DNA from: Candidatus Eiseniibacteriota bacterium
Lineage (GTDB): Bacteria; Orphanbacterota; Orphanbacteria; Orphanbacterales; Orphanbacteraceae
DNA: 51,141 bases
Direction of reading: 5' to 3'
Assembly: GCA_043809585.1 (NCBI GenBank)
Contig: JBDROZ010000023.1
Coordinates: 62,001 to 113,141 of the forward strand
Below, piece by piece: positions 4,471-51,141 of this stretch. The notes beneath the pieces are model-generated. The model worked only from the letters and a program-made list of their open reading frames with translations. It had not been told where the DNA came from and made no database searches. The first letter of the stretch is position 1, and the number at the start of each line of letters is the position of its first letter. Both the position numbers and the translations under genes were made by a program.

Positions 4471-5219
4471 GGAGCTTTCCCCACAGGACACGGCTCCGAA
4501 CCATAGTACGGACGGGGCCTGTCCGCTCCTGTCCGCTGCGGTGCTCGTCAGTCGCGCATTTGCTCTTCTCCCTCCGCATCGCGTAAACCGCACGTTTCGT
4601 CTTCAGTGATACATCCGTGATCGGGATCTTGCGCTTGGTGACTGCGCGCCTCGCCTGACGCCCCTGTCGCGGCCACCCGTCCGTGGTTGCGAGTAATCAG
4701 CAAGGACTACCGCCCGGAAGGGACCATCTCCAGGCAGTTGATTGCATCCCCCTTCCCTGCTGGGGGGGGGAGGCGTTCGCCCACCCGGGCGCTCAATGGC
4801 CCGCTCATTCGTGCCGCGCTCCCCCTCCCCGTTCGCCCTGAGTGGCGCCGAGAGAAGCGAGGCGTCGTATCGAAGGGGGAACCGGGAGGAGAGGAAGAGA
4901 TCGCTGCCTTTCCCCCGGTTCATCCTTCGATACACCGCCCGGAGGACCGGGCGGCACTCAGGACGAACGGGGAGAGGTATCACCGATCTCCGCCACTTCG
5001 GTGTGAGTCTGGAATGCGGGGGACATGAACTTGTTTCGTGTCCCCCGCATTTCTCAGCGAGCCCTGTCCCCCTCCGGGGGGATACCGCAGAGGAAGAGCA
5101 CCATTCCAAGGTGCAGAGGAGGAGTCCGATGAGGATGGCAACTTCGGAATGAGCGGGGCACGACCATTCCAAGGTGCACGGGAGGAGTCCGAGGAGGATA
5201 GCCACTTTGGAATGAGTGG
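4471..5219. repeat. mosaic intergenic repeat cluster: micro-palindrome, two CCTGAGT-hairpin-GTATCGAAG REPs, a 43-bp palindrome and a 2x63-bp tandem
   Basis: The modules recur at 7530-7770, 17580-17770, 30853-31270 and 50552-51141. Confidence 0.8.
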
Positions 5220-5246
5220 TAACCTCCGATTTGCTATTCTGTGCTC

Positions 5247-7514: not shown

Positions 7515-7529
7515 GCCATCACCCGAAGC

Positions 7530-7770
7530 GGCTATTCCCCTCGGACTCCTCCTCGGCACCCCAGAATGAACGTTGCGGACTGCAATGCCCGTTTGGAGAA
7601 GAACGCCGAATATCCGAGGGGGGGCGGCGGGTGAGGGAGAGCGCTGTACCGACAATCGATGCGTGCCGGAGGCTCGGGCGGAACCAGTCCCCCGCTCATT
7701 CCAAAGCGGCTGAGCTCAGTGGAGTGCCGCTCCCGCTCATTCCAAGGCTGCCGATCTCAGAATGGCAATG
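7530..7770. repeat. remnants of the GAGGAGGAGTCCGAG / CCCGCTCATTCCAA repeat family
   Basis: CTCGGACTCCTCCTC (reverse complement of the 63-bp unit core) and two copies of CCCGCTCATTCCAA. Confidence 0.65.
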
Positions 7771-7773
7771 TGA

Positions 7774-7955
7774 CCGGCCGTCGCCGGCGAGTGGTTTCGT
7801 CGCGAGGCGAAGTGGAGCGAGGCGAGAGGCGGATCCGGACGAATCGCCTCCCGCAGGCGTAGCCGAAGCTACGTCGAGGGAGGCGATGAAGGAGGATCCG
7901 TCTCGCAGCCCGCGATCACGAGCCGCAGCAGAAACCACTCGCCGGCGGCGGCCGG
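7774..7955 (+). repeat. ~180-bp long-hairpin repeat element
   Basis: 25-bp terminal stem CCGGCCGTCGCCGGCGAGTGGTTTC/GAAACCACTCGCCGGCGGCGGCCGG and apical CGTAGC-CGAA-GCTACG; homologous to 17867-18047. Confidence 0.8.
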
Positions 7956-7958
7956 AGC

Positions 7959-8453
7959 TTACAGATCGACCTTGCCGAAGTCTTCGGGAGGGAGGTTGCG
8001 AAGGAACTCGCGGAGTTGGTCGGCCCGCTCCTCATCGCTCATCTCCACCTCTTCCCGGCCGAGTTGGAACAGGGAATCGGAAACGAAGATGGGCGACTTG
8101 GCCCGGAGGGCGAGGGCGATCGAATCGGACGGCCGGGCATCGACGCCGAGAACGTCCTCTTCCTGATTGATCAGCACCTTCGCGAAGAACGTGCTCTCCT
8201 TGAGCTCCGTGATGAGCACCTTGGTCACCTTGCCGTGCAGGCCTTCGATGACCGTCTTCAAGAGGTCGTGGGTGAGGGGGCGCTGGAACTTCCGGCCCGC
8301 GAGCTCCATGGCGATCGAACTCGCCTCGGCCGGGCCGATCCAGATCGGAAGCACCCGCGTCCCCCCGAGTTCCTGGAGAATCACAACGGGAGTCTTGTTC
8401 CGTTCGTCCAGCGCAAGACCGCTGACCCTGACTTCCACAAGGCTAGAACTCAT
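7959..8453 (-). CDS. bifunctional nuclease family protein (DUF151)
   Basis: LPIWIGPAEA, RPLTHDLL and DARPSDSIALA motifs. The start ATG lies inside the MITE terminal repeat. Confidence 0.92.
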   Translation of the reverse strand: MSSSLVEVRVSGLALDERNKTPVVILQELGGTRVLPIWIGPAEASSIAMELAGRKFQRPLTHDLLKTVIEGLHGKVTKVLITELKESTFFAKVLINQEEDVLGVDARPSDSIALALRAKSPIFVSDSLFQLGREEVEMSDEERADQLREFLRNLPPEDFGKVDL

Positions 8454-8625
8454 TTCAAGACCCCTTCCTGCTGCGGGCGGCTGCAGGGACGATCGGCTTC
8501 GTCCTCGGGCGAGAATGTACTCACCGGCCCATCCAGGGCCGCCTCCGGGCATTCCCGCCCTCGATCCTCGCCGTCCGTCCCTCCGCTTACCCTCGCGACG
8601 AAAGGGGTCTTGAAACGAGTTCTAG
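8443..8625. mobile_element. MITE copy 1 (CTAG/TA-flanked, TIR GAACTCRTTTCAA)
   Basis: CTAGAACTCATTTCAAGACCCCTT ... AAGGGGTCTTGAAACGAGTTCTAG; near-identical to 26529-26710. Confidence 0.9.
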
Positions 8626-8629
8626 GCAC
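8450..8629 (-). other. 59-aa upstream ORF from the ancestral GTG start through the MITE, ending in an ATGA overlap with the DUF151 start
   Basis: GGAG-N8-GTG at 8629; open frame (VPRTRFKTPF...QQEGVLK) to TGA 8452-8450, which overlaps ATG 8453-8451. Confidence 0.55.
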
Positions 8630-8681
8630 GGTTCGTTCTCCGAGTCGAAGGCGGTGCGGGGTCGTGATTCGATCCTCGTGT

Positions 8682-8710
8682 AACGTAGTCGATGGAGGGC
8701 CGAAAGTCAA
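8682..8710 (-). promoter_or_regulatory. sigma70-type promoter of the DUF151 gene, upstream of the MITE
   Basis: TTGACT-N17-TACGTT. Confidence 0.6.
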
Positions 8711-8778
8711 GGCGGGGCCGCCGGTTCCGGCGCCCCGTCCCCCGGTGCATCGAATGAAGAAGCAACCGGTTGAGAGAC

Positions 8779-9951
8779 TTACTCGTCCTCGAACTCGGGC
8801 GGTTCACTCCCCATGTTCTCGAGCATCCAGGTCGCGTTCTTCACGAGGTCGTCGCCGCACTCCGCCCCGTGGTCGATCACTTCCTGAAAAGTCGCCCGGG
8901 CCAGGTCGAAGTCGTGGAGCTCCTCCGCGTAAACGAATCCGATCATGAAACGGGCCTCGCAGACGTGCGAATCGTCCCCGTAGTTCACGACGATTTCCCG
9001 GTAGTATTTGATGCGCGTGAGCGGATCCGAGGACGACTGGGCGAGCTTGAAGAGCTTCTCCGCGGGGCGCTCCTCTTCCCCCTTCGCTCCTGTAACTCCG
9101 GCATCCAGAGCGCTCGGAACGATCTCGACGCCGAATTTCTCCTTGAGGAGGGCGACCTTCTCCTTCCGCACCTTCTCGGCGAAACGCTGCGAGTAGTTGC
9201 GCCGGATCGTCTCGCGGACCTTCTCGAAGGCGACCTCCGTTTCCGGATTCCGCTGCTCCACGGTGATCACGTGATAACCCTTGCCCGTCTTCACCACCGG
9301 CGAGATGGTTCCCACCGTCAGGCTGTCGATCATCATCATCAGCTCGTACGAGGACCCGACCAGGGGAATAATGGATGCGTTCTTCTGGATCGGGCCGATC
9401 CGGCCGGCCCGCGTCTTCGTCGGGATGTCGACGCAGTGCTCGGCGACGACCGCCTCCCAGCTGTCACCCCGGAGCAGGCGCCGTCTCGCCTCCAGGGCTT
9501 CCGCTTCCGTCGCCGCCACCACCTGACGCACCTCCGACTCCTCCGGCCTGGTGAACTCCTCGAGGTTCTCCTCGTAGTACGCGATCATGTCCGTCTCGGT
9601 CATCTGCGTGTAAGGCAGGACCTCCCGCTGATAATAGGACTGGATCAGGACCCCGCGCTCCGCGGATTCGATCCGCCGTTTCACCTCCGGGTTCTCTTCC
9701 AGCTTCATGTCGAGGGCGGCCAGGAGAAACGCCTCTTCGTCGAGCATCCCCTCGAGGAGTTTCTCCCCCCCCTCTTCCCCTTCGAACTGGCTCTGGATAT
9801 TGGGCGGCATCTCCGCGAGTCGCCGCTCCAGGTCGGCGCGCGTGATGACATGGTCCCCGATGCGGGCGACTACGTCCCCCTCCTTGCCGGACCCGCCGCA
9901 ACCGATGAGCAGCGTTCCCGAGAGGACGAGCAGCAAAGGAAAGCGCTTCAT
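8779..9951 (-). CDS. PrsA/SurA-like parvulin peptidyl-prolyl isomerase lipoprotein with C-terminal TPR-like region
   Basis: Lipobox LIGC; VVARIGDHVITRADL; SPVVKTGKGYHVI; EARFMIGFVYAEELHDFDLARATF TPR-like helix pair. Confidence 0.8.
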   Translation of the reverse strand: MKRFPLLLVLSGTLLIGCGGSGKEGDVVARIGDHVITRADLERRLAEMPPNIQSQFEGEEGGEKLLEGMLDEEAFLLAALDMKLEENPEVKRRIESAERGVLIQSYYQREVLPYTQMTETDMIAYYEENLEEFTRPEESEVRQVVAATEAEALEARRRLLRGDSWEAVVAEHCVDIPTKTRAGRIGPIQKNASIIPLVGSSYELMMMIDSLTVGTISPVVKTGKGYHVITVEQRNPETEVAFEKVRETIRRNYSQRFAEKVRKEKVALLKEKFGVEIVPSALDAGVTGAKGEEERPAEKLFKLAQSSSDPLTRIKYYREIVVNYGDDSHVCEARFMIGFVYAEELHDFDLARATFQEVIDHGAECGDDLVKNATWMLENMGSEPPEFEDE

Positions 9952-12263: not shown

Positions 12264-12445
12264 CTAAAACCGGTTTCACAACCTCCATTCTACTGCGATC
12301 GGCTGCAAGGCCCGGCGGCTGCGTACTCGGGCAAAAACGTCCTCAATGGCCTTCTTAGGCCACCTCCGGGCGTTTTCCCCCTTGATCCTTGCCGCCGGAC
12401 CTTTCGCTCGATCTCGCGACGAAGGAGGTTGCGAAACCGATTCTA
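12264..12445. mobile_element. MITE copy 3 (diverged), at the rpsF stop codon
   Basis: TIRs TAAAACCGGTTTCACAACCTCC / (rc) TAGAATCGGTTTCGCAACCTCC; the interior aligns with 8443-8625. Confidence 0.8.
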
Positions 12446-12943
12446 CTCGGTCTCGACTTCGGGCTTCTTCGTCTCTTCGGCGACTCCCTCGCCGTGGCCG
12501 GGTTCCGCCGCCGGGGCTTCCTCGGACGCCTTCACCACGACGGGCGGGTCTCCGGCGGGAGCCTTCTCGGCCTTCGGCGCCGGAGGAGCGGCGTGCTCCT
12601 CGTCCCGGCGGGGGTGGCCGTGATCCTCTTCGAGCCCCACGGTGGGCCCGTCCGGGAGACTGTCCTTCCGGAAGACCATGTGACGGAGGACCGCCTCGTT
12701 CAGACGAAACGAACGCTGCAGGCCCGCGACGCGCGACGGCGAATCCTCGAAATGAAGCACGAAGTAGTGACCGTCCCACTCCTTGCGGATCTCGTAGGCG
12801 AGGCGCCGCTTGCCCATGCGCTCCACGCTATGGAGCGAGCCGTCGCCCGACTCGATCAGATTCTTGATTTTCTCCATCTCCGCGTCGACCTCGTTCGCCT
12901 CGAGGCGGCCGCTGAAGATCACCATGGATTCGTAAATGGCCAA
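12443..12943 (-). CDS. rpsF: 30S ribosomal protein S6 with a long acidic/Pro-Ala tail
   Basis: [16 protein letters not shown] and LNEAVLRHM motifs; TTG start after AAGGAGG. Confidence 0.95.
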
Positions 12944-17579: not shown

Positions 17580-17770
17580 GGACTGGCTTCCTCGGACTCC
17601 TCCTCTGCACTCTGGAGCGCACGTGCTCATGTGCCGTGTCCGTCCGGAGGGGCTCGAGGGTCCGCTGCGGAATACGGGGGACACGAAACGAGTTCATGTC
17701 CCCCGCATTCCGAAGGTCCGTATCGAAGGGCTCGGGCGGAGCCAGTCCCCCCCTCACTCCGAAGCTCTAT
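17580..17770. repeat. repeat cluster containing a 43-bp palindrome (17669-17711) and the CTCGGACTCCTCCTC motif
   Basis: GGAATACGGGGGACACGAAACGAGTTCATGTCCCCCGCATTCC is the near reverse complement of 5011-5053. Confidence 0.75.
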
Positions 17771-17866
17771 GATCGGTCCGGTTTCGGTGTCACCCGTGGT
17801 TTCGATTCGGATTCGTGCCCGTCACCCACGGTTTTCCGTCGGATCCGTCTTCGGTCCCTTCCGGGG

Positions 17867-18047
17867 CACCCGGGGATCCGAATCGGTTTCGTCGCGAGGG
17901 CGGGCAGCGCGAGGCGAGAGGCCTGCTCTGGAGGAGCCGGCACCCGGAATCGTAGCCGAAGCTACGATGAGGATGCCGGCGAAGGAAGAGCTGCCTCGCA
18001 GCCCGCGATGATCGTCCGCAGCAGAAAGCGATGAGGATTCACGGGTG
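17867..18047 (+). repeat. ~180-bp long-hairpin repeat element next to the tRNA-Gln 3' end
   Basis: GGTTTCGTCGCGAGG ... CGTAGCCGAAGCTACG ... CTCGCAGCCCGCGAT ... CCGCAGCAGAAA, shared with 7774-7955. Confidence 0.8.
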
Positions 18048-25588: not shown

Positions 25589-25812
25589 CGGTACCATCCT
25601 CTCGGGGTTCGGGCGATCTCCCCCCCGCCGGCGCCGGGCGGCGGGAGACCCGGCTTCATGGGTCTTTCCCGAAGTCTAGTGCATCCGCCCCTTTCGTTGA
25701 AGAGGTTCCCCGCCCGCGGGCCGCCGGGGGGCAAAAAGACGGCCTGTTGACGGTGACAGGGGTAGGAACGATATGCCATAATAACCGGGAATACTACGGA
25801 GGTAGAGTCCCC

Positions 25813-26532
25813 ATGGCCACGAGCGACAAGACCACCGGTAAAGAAGTTGTTTGCGCCTTCTGTGATCTCCGAAAGATCGGGCTCTTCGGAGCGCTGGAAG
25901 AGGACTTCCTGAGCCGCGTGGACGAAGAGAAGACGGTCCACTCCTACCGGGCCCGCCAGGTGATCTTCCACGAGGGTACCCCCCCCCTCGCGATCTACTG
26001 CGTTCGCGCCGGCCGGGTTAAGCTCTACCGGAGCGGCTCCAAGGGGGAGGAAGTGGTCCTTCGCATCTTGGGGCCCGGCGACGTGTTCGGGCACCGCCCC
26101 CTTCTCGCCGGCGAGCTGTACGCGGCCACCGCCGAGGCGATCGAGGAGGCGGAGGTGTGCGTCCTCCCGAAGCAGACCCTCACGGAGCTCCTCCGGGTCT
26201 CCCCCTCCCTCGCCTTCGAGATGCTCGCCCGTTTGTCCCGAGACCTCCGGATTTCGGAGGACCAGCTCATCGACCTCTCCCAGCGCTCGGTGAAACAGCG
26301 GGCGGCGAGCCTCCTTCTCACGTTTCTCGAGGGGAGCGGCGAATCCGTGGACGGGGGCATCAAGCTCTCCATTCCCATCCAGCGCAAAGAGATGGCGCAG
26401 ATGGTGGGGACTACCCCGGAGACCTTCTCCCGCACGCTCCACGATCTCGCGGAGCGGGGACTGGTCTCCCTCTCCCGGTCCGAGATCATCGTCGTCGACG
26501 AGGCGGCGCTCCGCCGGGTCTCCGGCGACTAG
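25813..26532 (+). CDS. Crp/Fnr-family transcriptional regulator with N-terminal CxxC
   Basis: cNMP-binding fold (IFHEG, GRVKLY, GPGDVFG) and HTH GTTPETFSR; ATG after GGAGGT. Confidence 0.92.
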   Translation: MATSDKTTGKEVVCAFCDLRKIGLFGALEEDFLSRVDEEKTVHSYRARQVIFHEGTPPLAIYCVRAGRVKLYRSGSKGEEVVLRILGPGDVFGHRPLLAGELYAATAEAIEEAEVCVLPKQTLTELLRVSPSLAFEMLARLSRDLRISEDQLIDLSQRSVKQRAASLLLTFLEGSGESVDGGIKLSIPIQRKEMAQMVGTTPETFSRTLHDLAERGLVSLSRSEIIVVDEAALRRVSGD

Positions 26533-26710
26533 AACTCGTTTCAAAACCCCTTCCTGCTGCGGCCGGCTGCAGGGACGGACCGCATCGTCCTCGGGCAAGA
26601 ATGTCCTCTACGGCCCTCCAGGGCCGCCTCCGGGCATTCCCGCCCTCGATCCTCGCCGTCCGTCCCCTCGCTCACCCTCGCGGCGAAAGGGGTTATGAAA
26701 CGAGTTCTAG
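26529..26710. mobile_element. MITE copy 2, at the Crp/Fnr stop codon
   Basis: CTAGAACTCGTTTCAAAACCCCTT ... AAGGGGTTATGAAACGAGTTCTAG. Confidence 0.9.
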
Positions 26711-26829
26711 CCTGAATCATGCACAATCCAGGCTAGCACGACTCAACGCACATCAAGTTCATAGTTGACCGTCCTCATTGATCCTGCCCACCCCGATGTG
26801 CGAAAATGTATGGTGTAAAATGCGATACG

Positions 26830-30852: not shown

Positions 30853-31270
30853 CGGGGGCTTTTCCGGCAGGACACAGCTCCGAGCGCTTCCGCGCTCGTA
30901 GTTACCCCGCCGTGGGTGAGAGAGAGCGCGGCACAATCCCAGTCCGAACTTCGAGTGCCCGGGTGGGCGAACACCCTTCTCCCTCTCCTCCCGATGGGGG
31001 GGTCCGGTAGTACGAAAGGCGAAATGAACGGGGCCGAAGAGGGATTTCCAGCCGTGCGGGTGAGAACGACGACGACGGCGGTTCCTGAATTCCGTCGCCG
31101 GTGCTTGGTGGCCGGGGCGCCGCCCGTCCCTCACGAGCGCTTGCCCAGCGGGAGCGGGCTTCCCCAGCGACTGACGGGACGGGCAAGCCCCGTAGCCGGA
31201 CGTCAGGAGCATCCGGCGACTTCGAGATCGAAGGCGCCGCTCGGAGCCGTGTTCAAGAACCAGCACTCGA
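30853..31270. repeat. mosaic repeat cluster including a ~170-bp hairpin element (31082-31254)
   Basis: 31082-31254 is the reverse-complement homologue of 50567-50737, and 30920-30975 matches the modules at 4770-4825 and 50850-50905. Confidence 0.85.
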
Positions 31271-50566: not shown

Positions 50567-50737
50567 GGACATGGCTCCGACCGCGGCGTCAATATCGTGT
50601 CGTTGCCGGATGCTCGGATCCGGCTACGGGGCTTGTCCGTCCCGTCACTCGCTGGGGAAGCCCGCTCCCGCTGGGCAAGCGCTCGTGAGGGACGGACGGC
50701 GCCCCGGCCACCAAGCACCGGCAACCGAATTCAGGAA
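50567..50737 (-). repeat. ~170-bp hairpin element, second copy
   Basis: Reverse-complement homologue of 31082-31254. Confidence 0.85.
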
Positions 50738-50749
50738 ACGCCGCCTTCT

Positions 50750-51141
50750 CACCCCCGTTCGTCCTGAGTGCCGCCGAACGGAGTGAGGCGGTGTATCGAA
50801 GGATGAGCCGGGGGAAGGCGAAGACTCCCCGTCCGCCCCAGGGGGGGGAATGGCGTCCGCCCACCCGGGGGCGGGGTCCCCGTCCTCCGACCGTGCCGCG
50901 CTCACCACCCCCCGTTCGCCCTGAGTGCCACCGAACGGAGTGAGGCGGTGTATCGAAGCCTGTCCTGAGTAGGGCCGAAGGCCCGTACCGTAGGGGGTCG
51001 AACCGGGGGAAGGGCCACTACCCGCTTGGGGGCGGGATCCCCGTCCTCTGACCGTGCCGCGCTCACCATCCCCCGTTCGCCCTGAGTGCCGCCGACCGAA
51101 GGGAGGCGGTGTATCGAAGCCTGTCCTGAGTAGGGCCGAAG
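50750..51141 (+). repeat. BIME-like tandem array of CCGTTCGYCCTGAGT-hairpin-GTATCGAAG units, truncated by the window end
   Basis: Core occurs at about 50755, 50912 and 51073; the last two units have a 161-bp period. Confidence 0.85.

Follow-up and report, generated by a model that had tools for sequence, protein, structure and literature searches.

Transposon insertions in coding sequences (CDSs) are normally knock-outs. Coupling of termination and reinitiation occurs at overlapping ATGA junctions, and short leader frames unmask a downstream start, the leader open reading frame (ORF) of the integron attI site being one such case. For the donation of a start codon by a mobile element, the closest described system is MITEAba12 of Acinetobacter, a miniature transposable element with inverted repeats (MITE) which, in the part of the source considered here, has start codons and a few further codons at its ends (Adams and Brown, 2019, PMC6382973). 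In three genomes the neighboring gene takes its first four residues, MQQS, from nucleotides of the terminal repeat that read outward; the donation is linked there to an outward promoter and marked “data not shown” (PMC6382973). With MITEAba12, the donation of a start by the end of a MITE has a published precedent. The available sections of a second paper describe the repeats REP2 of Neisseria and IR-A/IR-B of Borrelia, which extend the 5′ ends of genes (Delihas, 2011, PMC3184786). In the excerpts of a 2024 review that were at hand (PMC10969869), in-frame fusions are treated and the terms “start codon” and “ribosome” are absent. A literature search, with supplements outside its scope, returned no MITE that combines a ribosome-binding site (RBS), stops in two frames, an open through-frame and a hairpin-masked restart, which is not proof of absence. 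The element described here lies in a stretch of 51,141 nt (contig JBDROZ010000023.1, positions 62,001–113,141, assembly GCA_043809585.1, Candidatus Eiseniibacteriota bacterium), in the following called the window; the genome, labeled G000, comprises 4.24 Mb in 123 contigs. A MITE (copy 1, 8443..8625) was found here within the first codons of a gene encoding a bifunctional-nuclease-domain protein (BFN/DUF151, 7959..8453, minus strand). The explanation that we favor overall, with moderate confidence, is that a restart cassette native to the MITE donates the start of the BFN gene, and that this start is served by leader-coupled re-initiation.

On the minus strand the locus consists of a promoter, GGAG, GTG, the element from 8625 to 8443 with CTAG at both borders and then the codons CTT GTG GAA GTC. 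The putative native BFN promoter (8682..8710, minus strand), which is graded likely, is composed of TTGACT (8710–8705), 17 nt and TACGTT (8687–8682). The ancestral RBS and start (8627..8641, minus strand), with GGAG (8641–8638), 8 nt and GTG (8629–8627), fit the family in position and codons. Copy 1 was delimited by means of repeat families, alignment and a genome census and comprises 183 bp including CTAG at both ends; the element proper spans 8446–8622 and is flanked by a TA duplication (8444–8445 and 8623–8624) inside the CTAG. Its gene-proximal end holds the putative restart cassette (8450..8466, minus strand): AAGGGG (8466–8461), 7 nt and an ATG (8453–8451) overlapping a TGA (8452–8450), with a second TGA in the third frame at 8457–8455. 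In general form the terminal bases read AAGGGG-N4-TTGAAATGA, with the ATG in one frame, a TGA at +1 and a TGA at -4 in the third frame. As a TGA is present in both other frames, a ribosome in either wrong frame would stop within 4 nt of the ATG. The leader frame (8450..8629, minus strand) runs with 59 codons and a TGA from the old GTG through the whole MITE. When opened at the MITE ATG the BFN gene has 164 codons (MSSSLVEV...), and a profile search located the PF02577 BFN_dom (2e-37) in the ORF 7959–8552, beginning 24 residues past ATG 8453. On direct reading, all coordinates and the arithmetic of the initial annotation (183 - 4 = 179 = 3 × 59 + 2) were right. The same is true for its statements that removal of the MITE with one CTAG kept restores GTG CCT AGC CTT GTG GAA GTC behind GGAG-N8, that a TTGACT-17-TACGTT promoter is present and that the 59-codon ORF from the old GTG ends at the TGA which overlaps the in-frame ATG downstream of AAGGGG.

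In comparison with MITEAba12, as far as the latter is described in the part of the source considered, the same kind of start donation is seen, with MSS(S) in place of MQQS. In MITEAba12, however, each of the six frames is interrupted by two or more stops and the fold is weak (-24 to -27 kcal/mol), whereas the through-frame of the element described here is free of stops, its hairpin is strong (-143.6 kcal/mol in the mRNA context), an RBS is part of the repeat and both other frames have stops by the ATG. Furthermore, the outward promoter of MITEAba12 has no counterpart here that could be detected by a crude scan of 8300–8800. REP2, according to the sections available, is without terminal inverted repeats, has its own promoter and forms a 5′ module upstream of genes (PMC3184786), whereas the start described here belongs to a terminal repeat, that of a transposon-like element situated inside the first codons. 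The palindromic elements of Rickettsia are similar in that they are palindromic mobile repeats tolerated in CDSs through an open frame; in the excerpts seen they add an internal peptide (PMC10969869; PMC3184786), whereas here the through-frame ends at a restart site and the protein gains just MSS. The locus also resembles known ATGA coupling, with an overlap of stop and start, an RBS just upstream and a start that is predicted to be buried in a structure which an elongating ribosome would open. The difference is that the whole device would here come ready-made in a transposable element.

Comparison with relatives confirms that the MITE inserted into the first codons of the BFN gene, between nucleotides 6 and 7 of the ancestral CDS (GTG CC/TA/GC, slashes enclosing the duplicated TA). 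Of 41 genomes searched, 29 have the gene, among them all eight other genomes of the family, and in G000 the search returned a single copy. The initial annotation had proposed that relatives should show an empty site, and in 19 of 19 orthologous loci, among them all eight family loci, the element was absent (150 nt before the gene were read, and the whole loci were searched for the end motif). Seven of the eight family loci begin with [G/T]TG-x-x-[M/L]-[I/V]-E-V-[R/K]-V behind a GGAG-type site, for instance AGGAGG agccgcc GTG CCC GAA ATG ATC GAA GTA in L006 and GGGAGG cgaagggc GTG GTC GGC ATG ATC in L004; L007 deviates slightly, with TTG, four codons and V-Q-V. The reconstructed start GTG CCT AGC CTT GTG GAA GTC (MPSLVEV) fits this pattern exactly, so that the family N-termini agree with the proposed ancestral state. 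In five of the eight family orthologs (L002, L003, L004, L005, L007) TTGAC[T/G]-17-TACCTT occurs at the place of the promoter. Moreover, a groundwater metagenome contig of 6171 nt (run X2, about 88% identical) covers 7975–8442 and 8678–8949, with 55 other letters where 235 letters of the window (8442 to 8678) are skipped. Since this contig bridges the junction without the MITE, it derives from a relative that lacks the element.

The window contains three copies of the element. Copy 1 and copy 2 (26529..26710), the latter with ACG at both ends and located on the TAG stop of a gene for a Crp/Fnr-type regulator, are members of subfamily A; copy 3 (12265..12446, ends GGAGGTTG[T/C]GAAACC) is a member of subfamily B and about 71% identical. 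A blastn search with copy 1 revealed 59 non-overlapping places in G000, of which 34 are at least 150 nt long; 14 of these have 88–100% identity (subfamily A) and 20 about 70% (subfamily B, with ends reading GGAGGTTGTGAAACC). The terminal inverted repeats, with ends CTAGAACTC[A/G]TTTCAA[A/G]ACCCCTT..., form a stem of 26 bp by pairing. TA is found at both borders in the majority of the 14 subfamily A copies, and because the bases outside the TA vary independently on both sides (e.g., G-TA-G...C-TA-A), the duplication consists of the TA within a CTAG-like target. Small size, multiple copies, terminal inverted repeats, target duplication, empty sites, the lack of a transposase gene and a non-coding-like leader without Pfam match all fit a bacterial MITE. 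REPs and REPINs are doublets of short G+C-rich palindromes that a RAYT mobilizes and that leave no target duplication; long terminal repeats, TA duplication and a core of 130 nt speak against such an assignment, and no search aimed at RAYT was made. Between 7900 and 8900 there were no Rfam matches at E-values up to 1. The end motif was found in one of ten genomes of the same phylum, G000 alone, and subfamily A in one of nine family genomes, again G000; a plasmid collection yielded three records, each covering at most 18% of the query and none of them meaningful. Copy 1 differs from the subfamily consensus at 13 of 183 positions and was for this reason probably not inserted very recently. Short derivatives of subfamily A (about 100–130 bp; C114:3483–3607, C5:18559–18675 and C17:67468–67594) keep both terminal repeats and lack most of the core.

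Elements of the IS630 and Tc1-mariner type duplicate TA and prefer CTAG. The element described here shares the TA duplication and has CTAG-like targets (x-TA-G...C-TA-y), but differs in that a parent element was not found: in G000 no pair of matching ends lies more than about 190 bp apart, and the three DDE_3 matches have no matching end motif within 1.5 kb. As the genome is an assembly of 123 contigs, the parent insertion sequence may be unassembled. Elements of the IS5 group with TA duplication may also be the origin.

The initial annotation had regarded the ATG end as the only T-bearing end of copies 1 and 2 and had proposed a rescue of the gene by a single C-to-T change. Among copies 1 and 2 of the window the T is indeed found at 8443–8456 only. 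Genome-wide this does not hold: a fuzzy search returned 51 end matches in G000, of which 22 read ATG, 23 ACG, three AAG, two GCG and one GTG, at least two of the 51 (C3:37919 and C53:44103) not being true ends. Within the 14 full-length copies of subfamily A, 16 of 28 ends are of the ATG type; the left end reads CTCATTTC in nine copies and the right end AATGAG in seven, with GTG in one more. Accordingly, the majority consensus of subfamily A has ATG at both ends, as do the three copies nearest to copy 1 (C11, C39 and C101; 93%). Five of the 14 copies are mixed, and such copies are common without an adjoining gene. Public contigs were scanned for one exact ATG 21-mer of the element end, with one scan per collection, and matches were obtained in one genome contig and seven metagenome contigs, two of which (L062 and L065) are identical in sequence. 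They include four distinct elements with the same terminal repeats and different cores in DNA of 48–61% G+C: L061, L062 (identical to L065), L063 and L064. The distal ends of all four, which lie outside the query, read GAACTCATTTC (CAT, i.e., ATG type). The frequency of ATG among the ends in G000, the consensus at both ends and the four foreign distal ends together support ATG as the normal end state of the family, with no repair mutation needed at the BFN gene; in copy 1, the deviating base is to be sought more probably in the ACG of the far end than in the proximal ATG. The annotation had itself named a common ATG variant among unrelated genomic copies as what would refute it, and by this test the rescue by a single base change is not supported.

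Start donation was also found at three other genes. In four of the 22 ATG ends of G000 the ATG frame enters coding-like sequence. Two of these candidates were rejected: the STAS-type gene at C108:1030 has its start 45 codons beyond the ATG, and at C96:2257 the gene start is likewise further downstream. The second donor in G000 is located on contig C12, where an element splits the gene of a fumarase beta subunit (fumB; PF05683, 4.6e-47). The junction reads GGGGAGG tccgcc ATG AT/TAG...element...GTTCCA/AACTCACC, from which MSSKLTTP is deduced, the old start being split as ATG AT/TA/AA. The predicted empty site is seen in L055 (ATG ATT AAG CTC GAC ATT CCG) and L052 (ATG ATT AGG CTC). On C12, the TAG at the element border now serves as the stop of the upstream gene of the fumarase alpha subunit (PF05681, 1.8e-75). 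The remaining two, on unrelated metagenome contigs, were called donors from the retained old start and the position of the Pfam domain. In L064, AAGGAGG gaaa ATG CC/TAG...element...ATG AGT TCT AAG GTC TTG GCT (MSSKVLAFVLAGGEGTRL), the old start is split as ATG CC/TA/AG and the host gene encodes a nucleotidyl transferase (PF00483, 4.8e-22, from residue 7). In L063, ATG AAA GC/TAG...element...ATG AGT TCA AAA AAA ATC GGT (MSSKKIGIVGYGYVG), the host gene encodes an enzyme of the UDP-glucose dehydrogenase type (PF00984, 3.1e-22). What BFN, fumB, L063 and L064 have in common is a terminal repeat whose outward-reading start codon shares the frame of the host gene. The insertion lies at nucleotides 6/7 of the old CDS in three of the four donors and at 9/10 in one, the codon phase is identical in all, and the three others have ATG at both ends of the element. 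By contrast, none of the 23 ACG ends of G000 is in frame at the first codons of a gene. The ends of subfamily B (GGAGGTTGTGA, n = 39) provided no convincing donor either; four are in frame with coding-like ORFs, and the genes start further downstream.

The exact 21-mer end was additionally found in L059:3439–3467, L058:2216–2236 and L060 (minus strand, ATG 14523 of the reverse complement); as no second terminal repeat follows there within 600 nt, these were not counted as MITEs. Each of the three ATGs is the start of a gene that looks real (MSS...), in L059 one with a GFO_IDH_MocA match (3.7e-28) and 28 nt of similarity to the MITE end at the gene start. They are either chance matches or solo ends after loss of the remaining element; single-end matches at gene starts such as that of L059 could be restart modules after element loss.

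The old RBS and start are intact in all four donors, and the frame from the old start is open for 59, 59, 59 and 60 codons, ending at +1, +1, +1 and -4 relative to the new ATG; it is the sole sense frame without stops. Together with the AAGGGG 7 nt before the ATG, the stop positions (+1 in three donors, -4 in one) fit the geometry of coupled genes. At the BFN locus the leader frame has GC1/2/3 values of 0.68/0.58/0.68 and no Pfam match; with these values it is not coding-like. Among the 183-nt copies in G000 the frame is open in both orientations in seven of eight, C96 having one open orientation (stop in the flank), and in 182-nt copies the through-frame is not open. Over five independent cores, the frame was open in eight of ten orientations, with about 3.2 expected from mononucleotide shuffles, a post hoc comparison whose null ignores TA depletion. 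This points to the open through-frame as a property of the family rather than a result of selection on single copies.

The initial annotation had suggested a hairpin that buries the new start, and folding predictions agree. The mRNA stretch 8680–8400 folds to -143.6 kcal/mol (z = -6.15; none of 200 shuffles as good), with a predicted 26-bp stem between the two terminal repeats in which the C/T difference becomes a G-U pair. For the new RBS and ATG, predicted unpaired probabilities in the four donors were 0.00, 0.13, 0.00 and 0.00, the first being that of BFN; for the old RBS and start they were 0.53 (BFN), 0.44, 0.55 and 0.42. As the new RBS and ATG are predicted to be paired, the new start seems usable only with the stem opened, as the coupling model of the initial annotation has it. 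We propose the following course of events. A TA-duplicating MITE entered the ancestral BFN CDS between nucleotides 6 and 7. The phase of this insertion was suitable, so that the ATG brought by the element would open the gene and the N-terminus would change just from MPS to MSSS. The stem of the paired terminal repeats would bury the new RBS, and the old RBS and GTG would stay outside the stem. Ribosomes would load at the old RBS and GTG, probably during transcription, read the 59-codon stop-free frame and thereby unwind the stem, terminate at the UGA of the AUGA and restart at the AUG. Translational coupling is plausible and is strengthened by the three further cases with the same geometry; by our inference, initiation takes place at ATG 8453 and requires translation of the leader.

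Several observations weigh against this interpretation. The stem begins 4 nt after the old GTG, with a predicted unpaired probability of 0.06 for +3 to +15, so that loading at the old start should be hindered and would presumably have to precede transcription of the 3′ arm. The evidence for the use of ATG 8453 consists of the sequence and the predicted fold. In G+C-rich DNA an open leader frame arises fairly often by chance, with P = 0.42, 0.46, 0.08 and 0.38 in the four donors (shuffled interiors), values that are suggestive without being decisive, and since the frame is also open in non-donor copies, it does not set the donors apart. The donors were found by looking for them, and just two of the 22 ATG ends in G000 are donors. 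Because the copy tree is star-like, with one of 14 inner branches well supported, the end state at insertion and the date of the C/T change are unprovable. The aligned columns of subfamily B have a G on the left and a C on the right, and ACG could for that reason be the older state within this genome. Finally, among the contigs of the sequencing runs none that is identical to the window crosses the junction with base 8452, and those which cover 8444–8625 are other MITE copies. The search of sequencing runs found no RNA runs with the locus, and the best DNA run shares 0.14 of the sampled words.

Three other explanations were considered. A rescue, in which an element with ACG at its proximal end deprived the gene of its start and the ATG and the ATGA arose afterwards by a C-to-T change, appears improbable to us. 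It would account for the mixed ends of copy 1 (ATG proximal, ACG distal), which imply that one end changed after both had been alike, and the 13 deviations from the consensus would have left time for changes; ACG ends are also about as common as ATG ends in G000 (23 and 22 of 51), and the subfamily B columns read G and C. However, ATG stands at both ends in the subfamily consensus, in the nearest copies and in the other three donors, the distal ends of all four elements from other organisms are of the ATG type, copies with mixed ends often have no adjoining gene (5 of 14 are mixed), and a start-less intermediate of the sole BFN gene would have had to persist. Very improbable is the view that the insertion harmed the gene, which would be translated from a weak start at GTG 8438 (8436..8438, minus strand; MEVRV...) or be in silent decay, the in-frame ATG being a one-in-three coincidence. 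This GTG is in frame and aligns with the residue after the Met that opens distant homologs, and the new RBS is fully paired in the predicted fold, but no purine-rich stretch precedes GTG 8438. The BFN gene is furthermore intact and present as the sole copy; its GC1/2/3 values are 0.67/0.37/0.82, and parsimony with three sister and three outgroup sequences assigned 34 synonymous and 16 non-synonymous changes to the G000 branch and 20 and 19, respectively, to the sister stem. The gene thus looks still constrained, which argues weakly against a dead gene. Against chance placement in one of three frames stand also the three other genes that carry an insertion in this phase among the first 10 nt of their CDSs, and the lack of in-frame ends at the first codons of genes among the 23 ACG ends.

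Long duplexes in Correia-like repeats are targets of RNase III. The BFN transcript might likewise be cleaved by a double-strand RNase, or transcripts might begin inside the element, so that ribosomes would bind the MITE ATG directly where the stem is absent and the leader would be incidental. We consider this uncoupled use of the donated start unlikely, although less so than the two explanations above. The open frame is present family-wide, including non-donors (8 of 10 element orientations), a stem base 4 nt from the old GTG should hinder initiation there, and Correia elements have functional promoters according to the sections available of Delihas (2011, PMC3184786). On the other hand, the crude scan detected no promoter-like site or terminator in 8300–8800 on either strand, and no outward promoter in the element. 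The scan also missed the conserved upstream promoter, as the second hexamer of the latter agrees with TATAAT at just three of six positions. In addition, all four donors have a stop in each of the other two frames at no more than 4 nt from the ATG, which would be without a role in uncoupled use, and the old RBS and start are intact throughout.

Further repeats were noticed in the vicinity. A second family consists of a short hairpin with the arms GGGGGACA...TGTCCCCC and a loop containing GAAACGAGTTC, the same 11 bases as in the MITE terminal repeat; it occurs in the window at 5011–5051 and 17669–17709 and at dozens more places in G000, often in tandem clusters (e.g., C69:96167–96423 and C17:80704–81014). 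The motif common to both families may be a common protein-binding site. Another palindromic repeat has a CTAG at its center (GGAGATTTGTGCATGATCCAGG, CTAG, CCTGGATTATGCA...) in which several MITE copies are located, in the window at 26711–26735 and elsewhere at C36:4135–4159, C121:36109–36133 and C90:113–137, and the same flank was found as loose ends in metagenome contigs; the CTAG of this repeat is a hot spot of nested insertion. The gene of the Crp/Fnr-type regulator (25747–26532; cNMP_binding 1.2e-24, HTH_Crp_2 6.5e-18) has a TAG stop (26529–26532) formed by the border of copy 2. In a genome of 66% G+C, TA targets at stop and start codons may explain the copies at gene boundaries. Tandem repeats of about 160 bp form the end of the window (50752–51141), with a related unit at 4826–4875, and an inverted repeat pair of 130 nt (31071–31200 and 50619–50748) is 94% complementary over a distance of 19 kb. 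Just downstream of the nuclease gene, a dispersed repeat (7520–7940) shares several repeats of 35–100 nt with 17590–18027 and 5100–5220, including the pairs 7793–7934 with 17885–18027 and 7523–7573 with 5100–5219.

The findings concern four independent insertions in at least three organisms, all within the first 10 nt of conserved genes, whose products are a nuclease, one subunit of a fumarase and two sugar-nucleotide enzymes, a transferase and a dehydrogenase. The four host genes remain intact because the end of the element replaces the start, and judged from the sequences the restart-cassette architecture recurs across organisms. Since ATG is common at other ends of the family in this genome and elsewhere, the notion of an adaptive mutation falls away; a variant that is unique in one window needs a whole-genome check before it is read as such. 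For annotation this means that gene callers may misplace the start or annotate the leader of 59 codons as a gene. If translation of the leader exposes the start, the mobile element would deliver a complete translational control device in one step. That the terminal repeat of the MITE is an evolved restart cassette of RBS, two-frame stops and ATG, joined to a stop-free frame, is a tentative idea which we consider possible rather than probable. If it is true, insertions in first codons or at operon junctions would keep the host gene translated, under the control of a hairpin opened by ribosomes, and the transposon would lower the cost of its own insertion and give its hosts ready-made modules for translational control.

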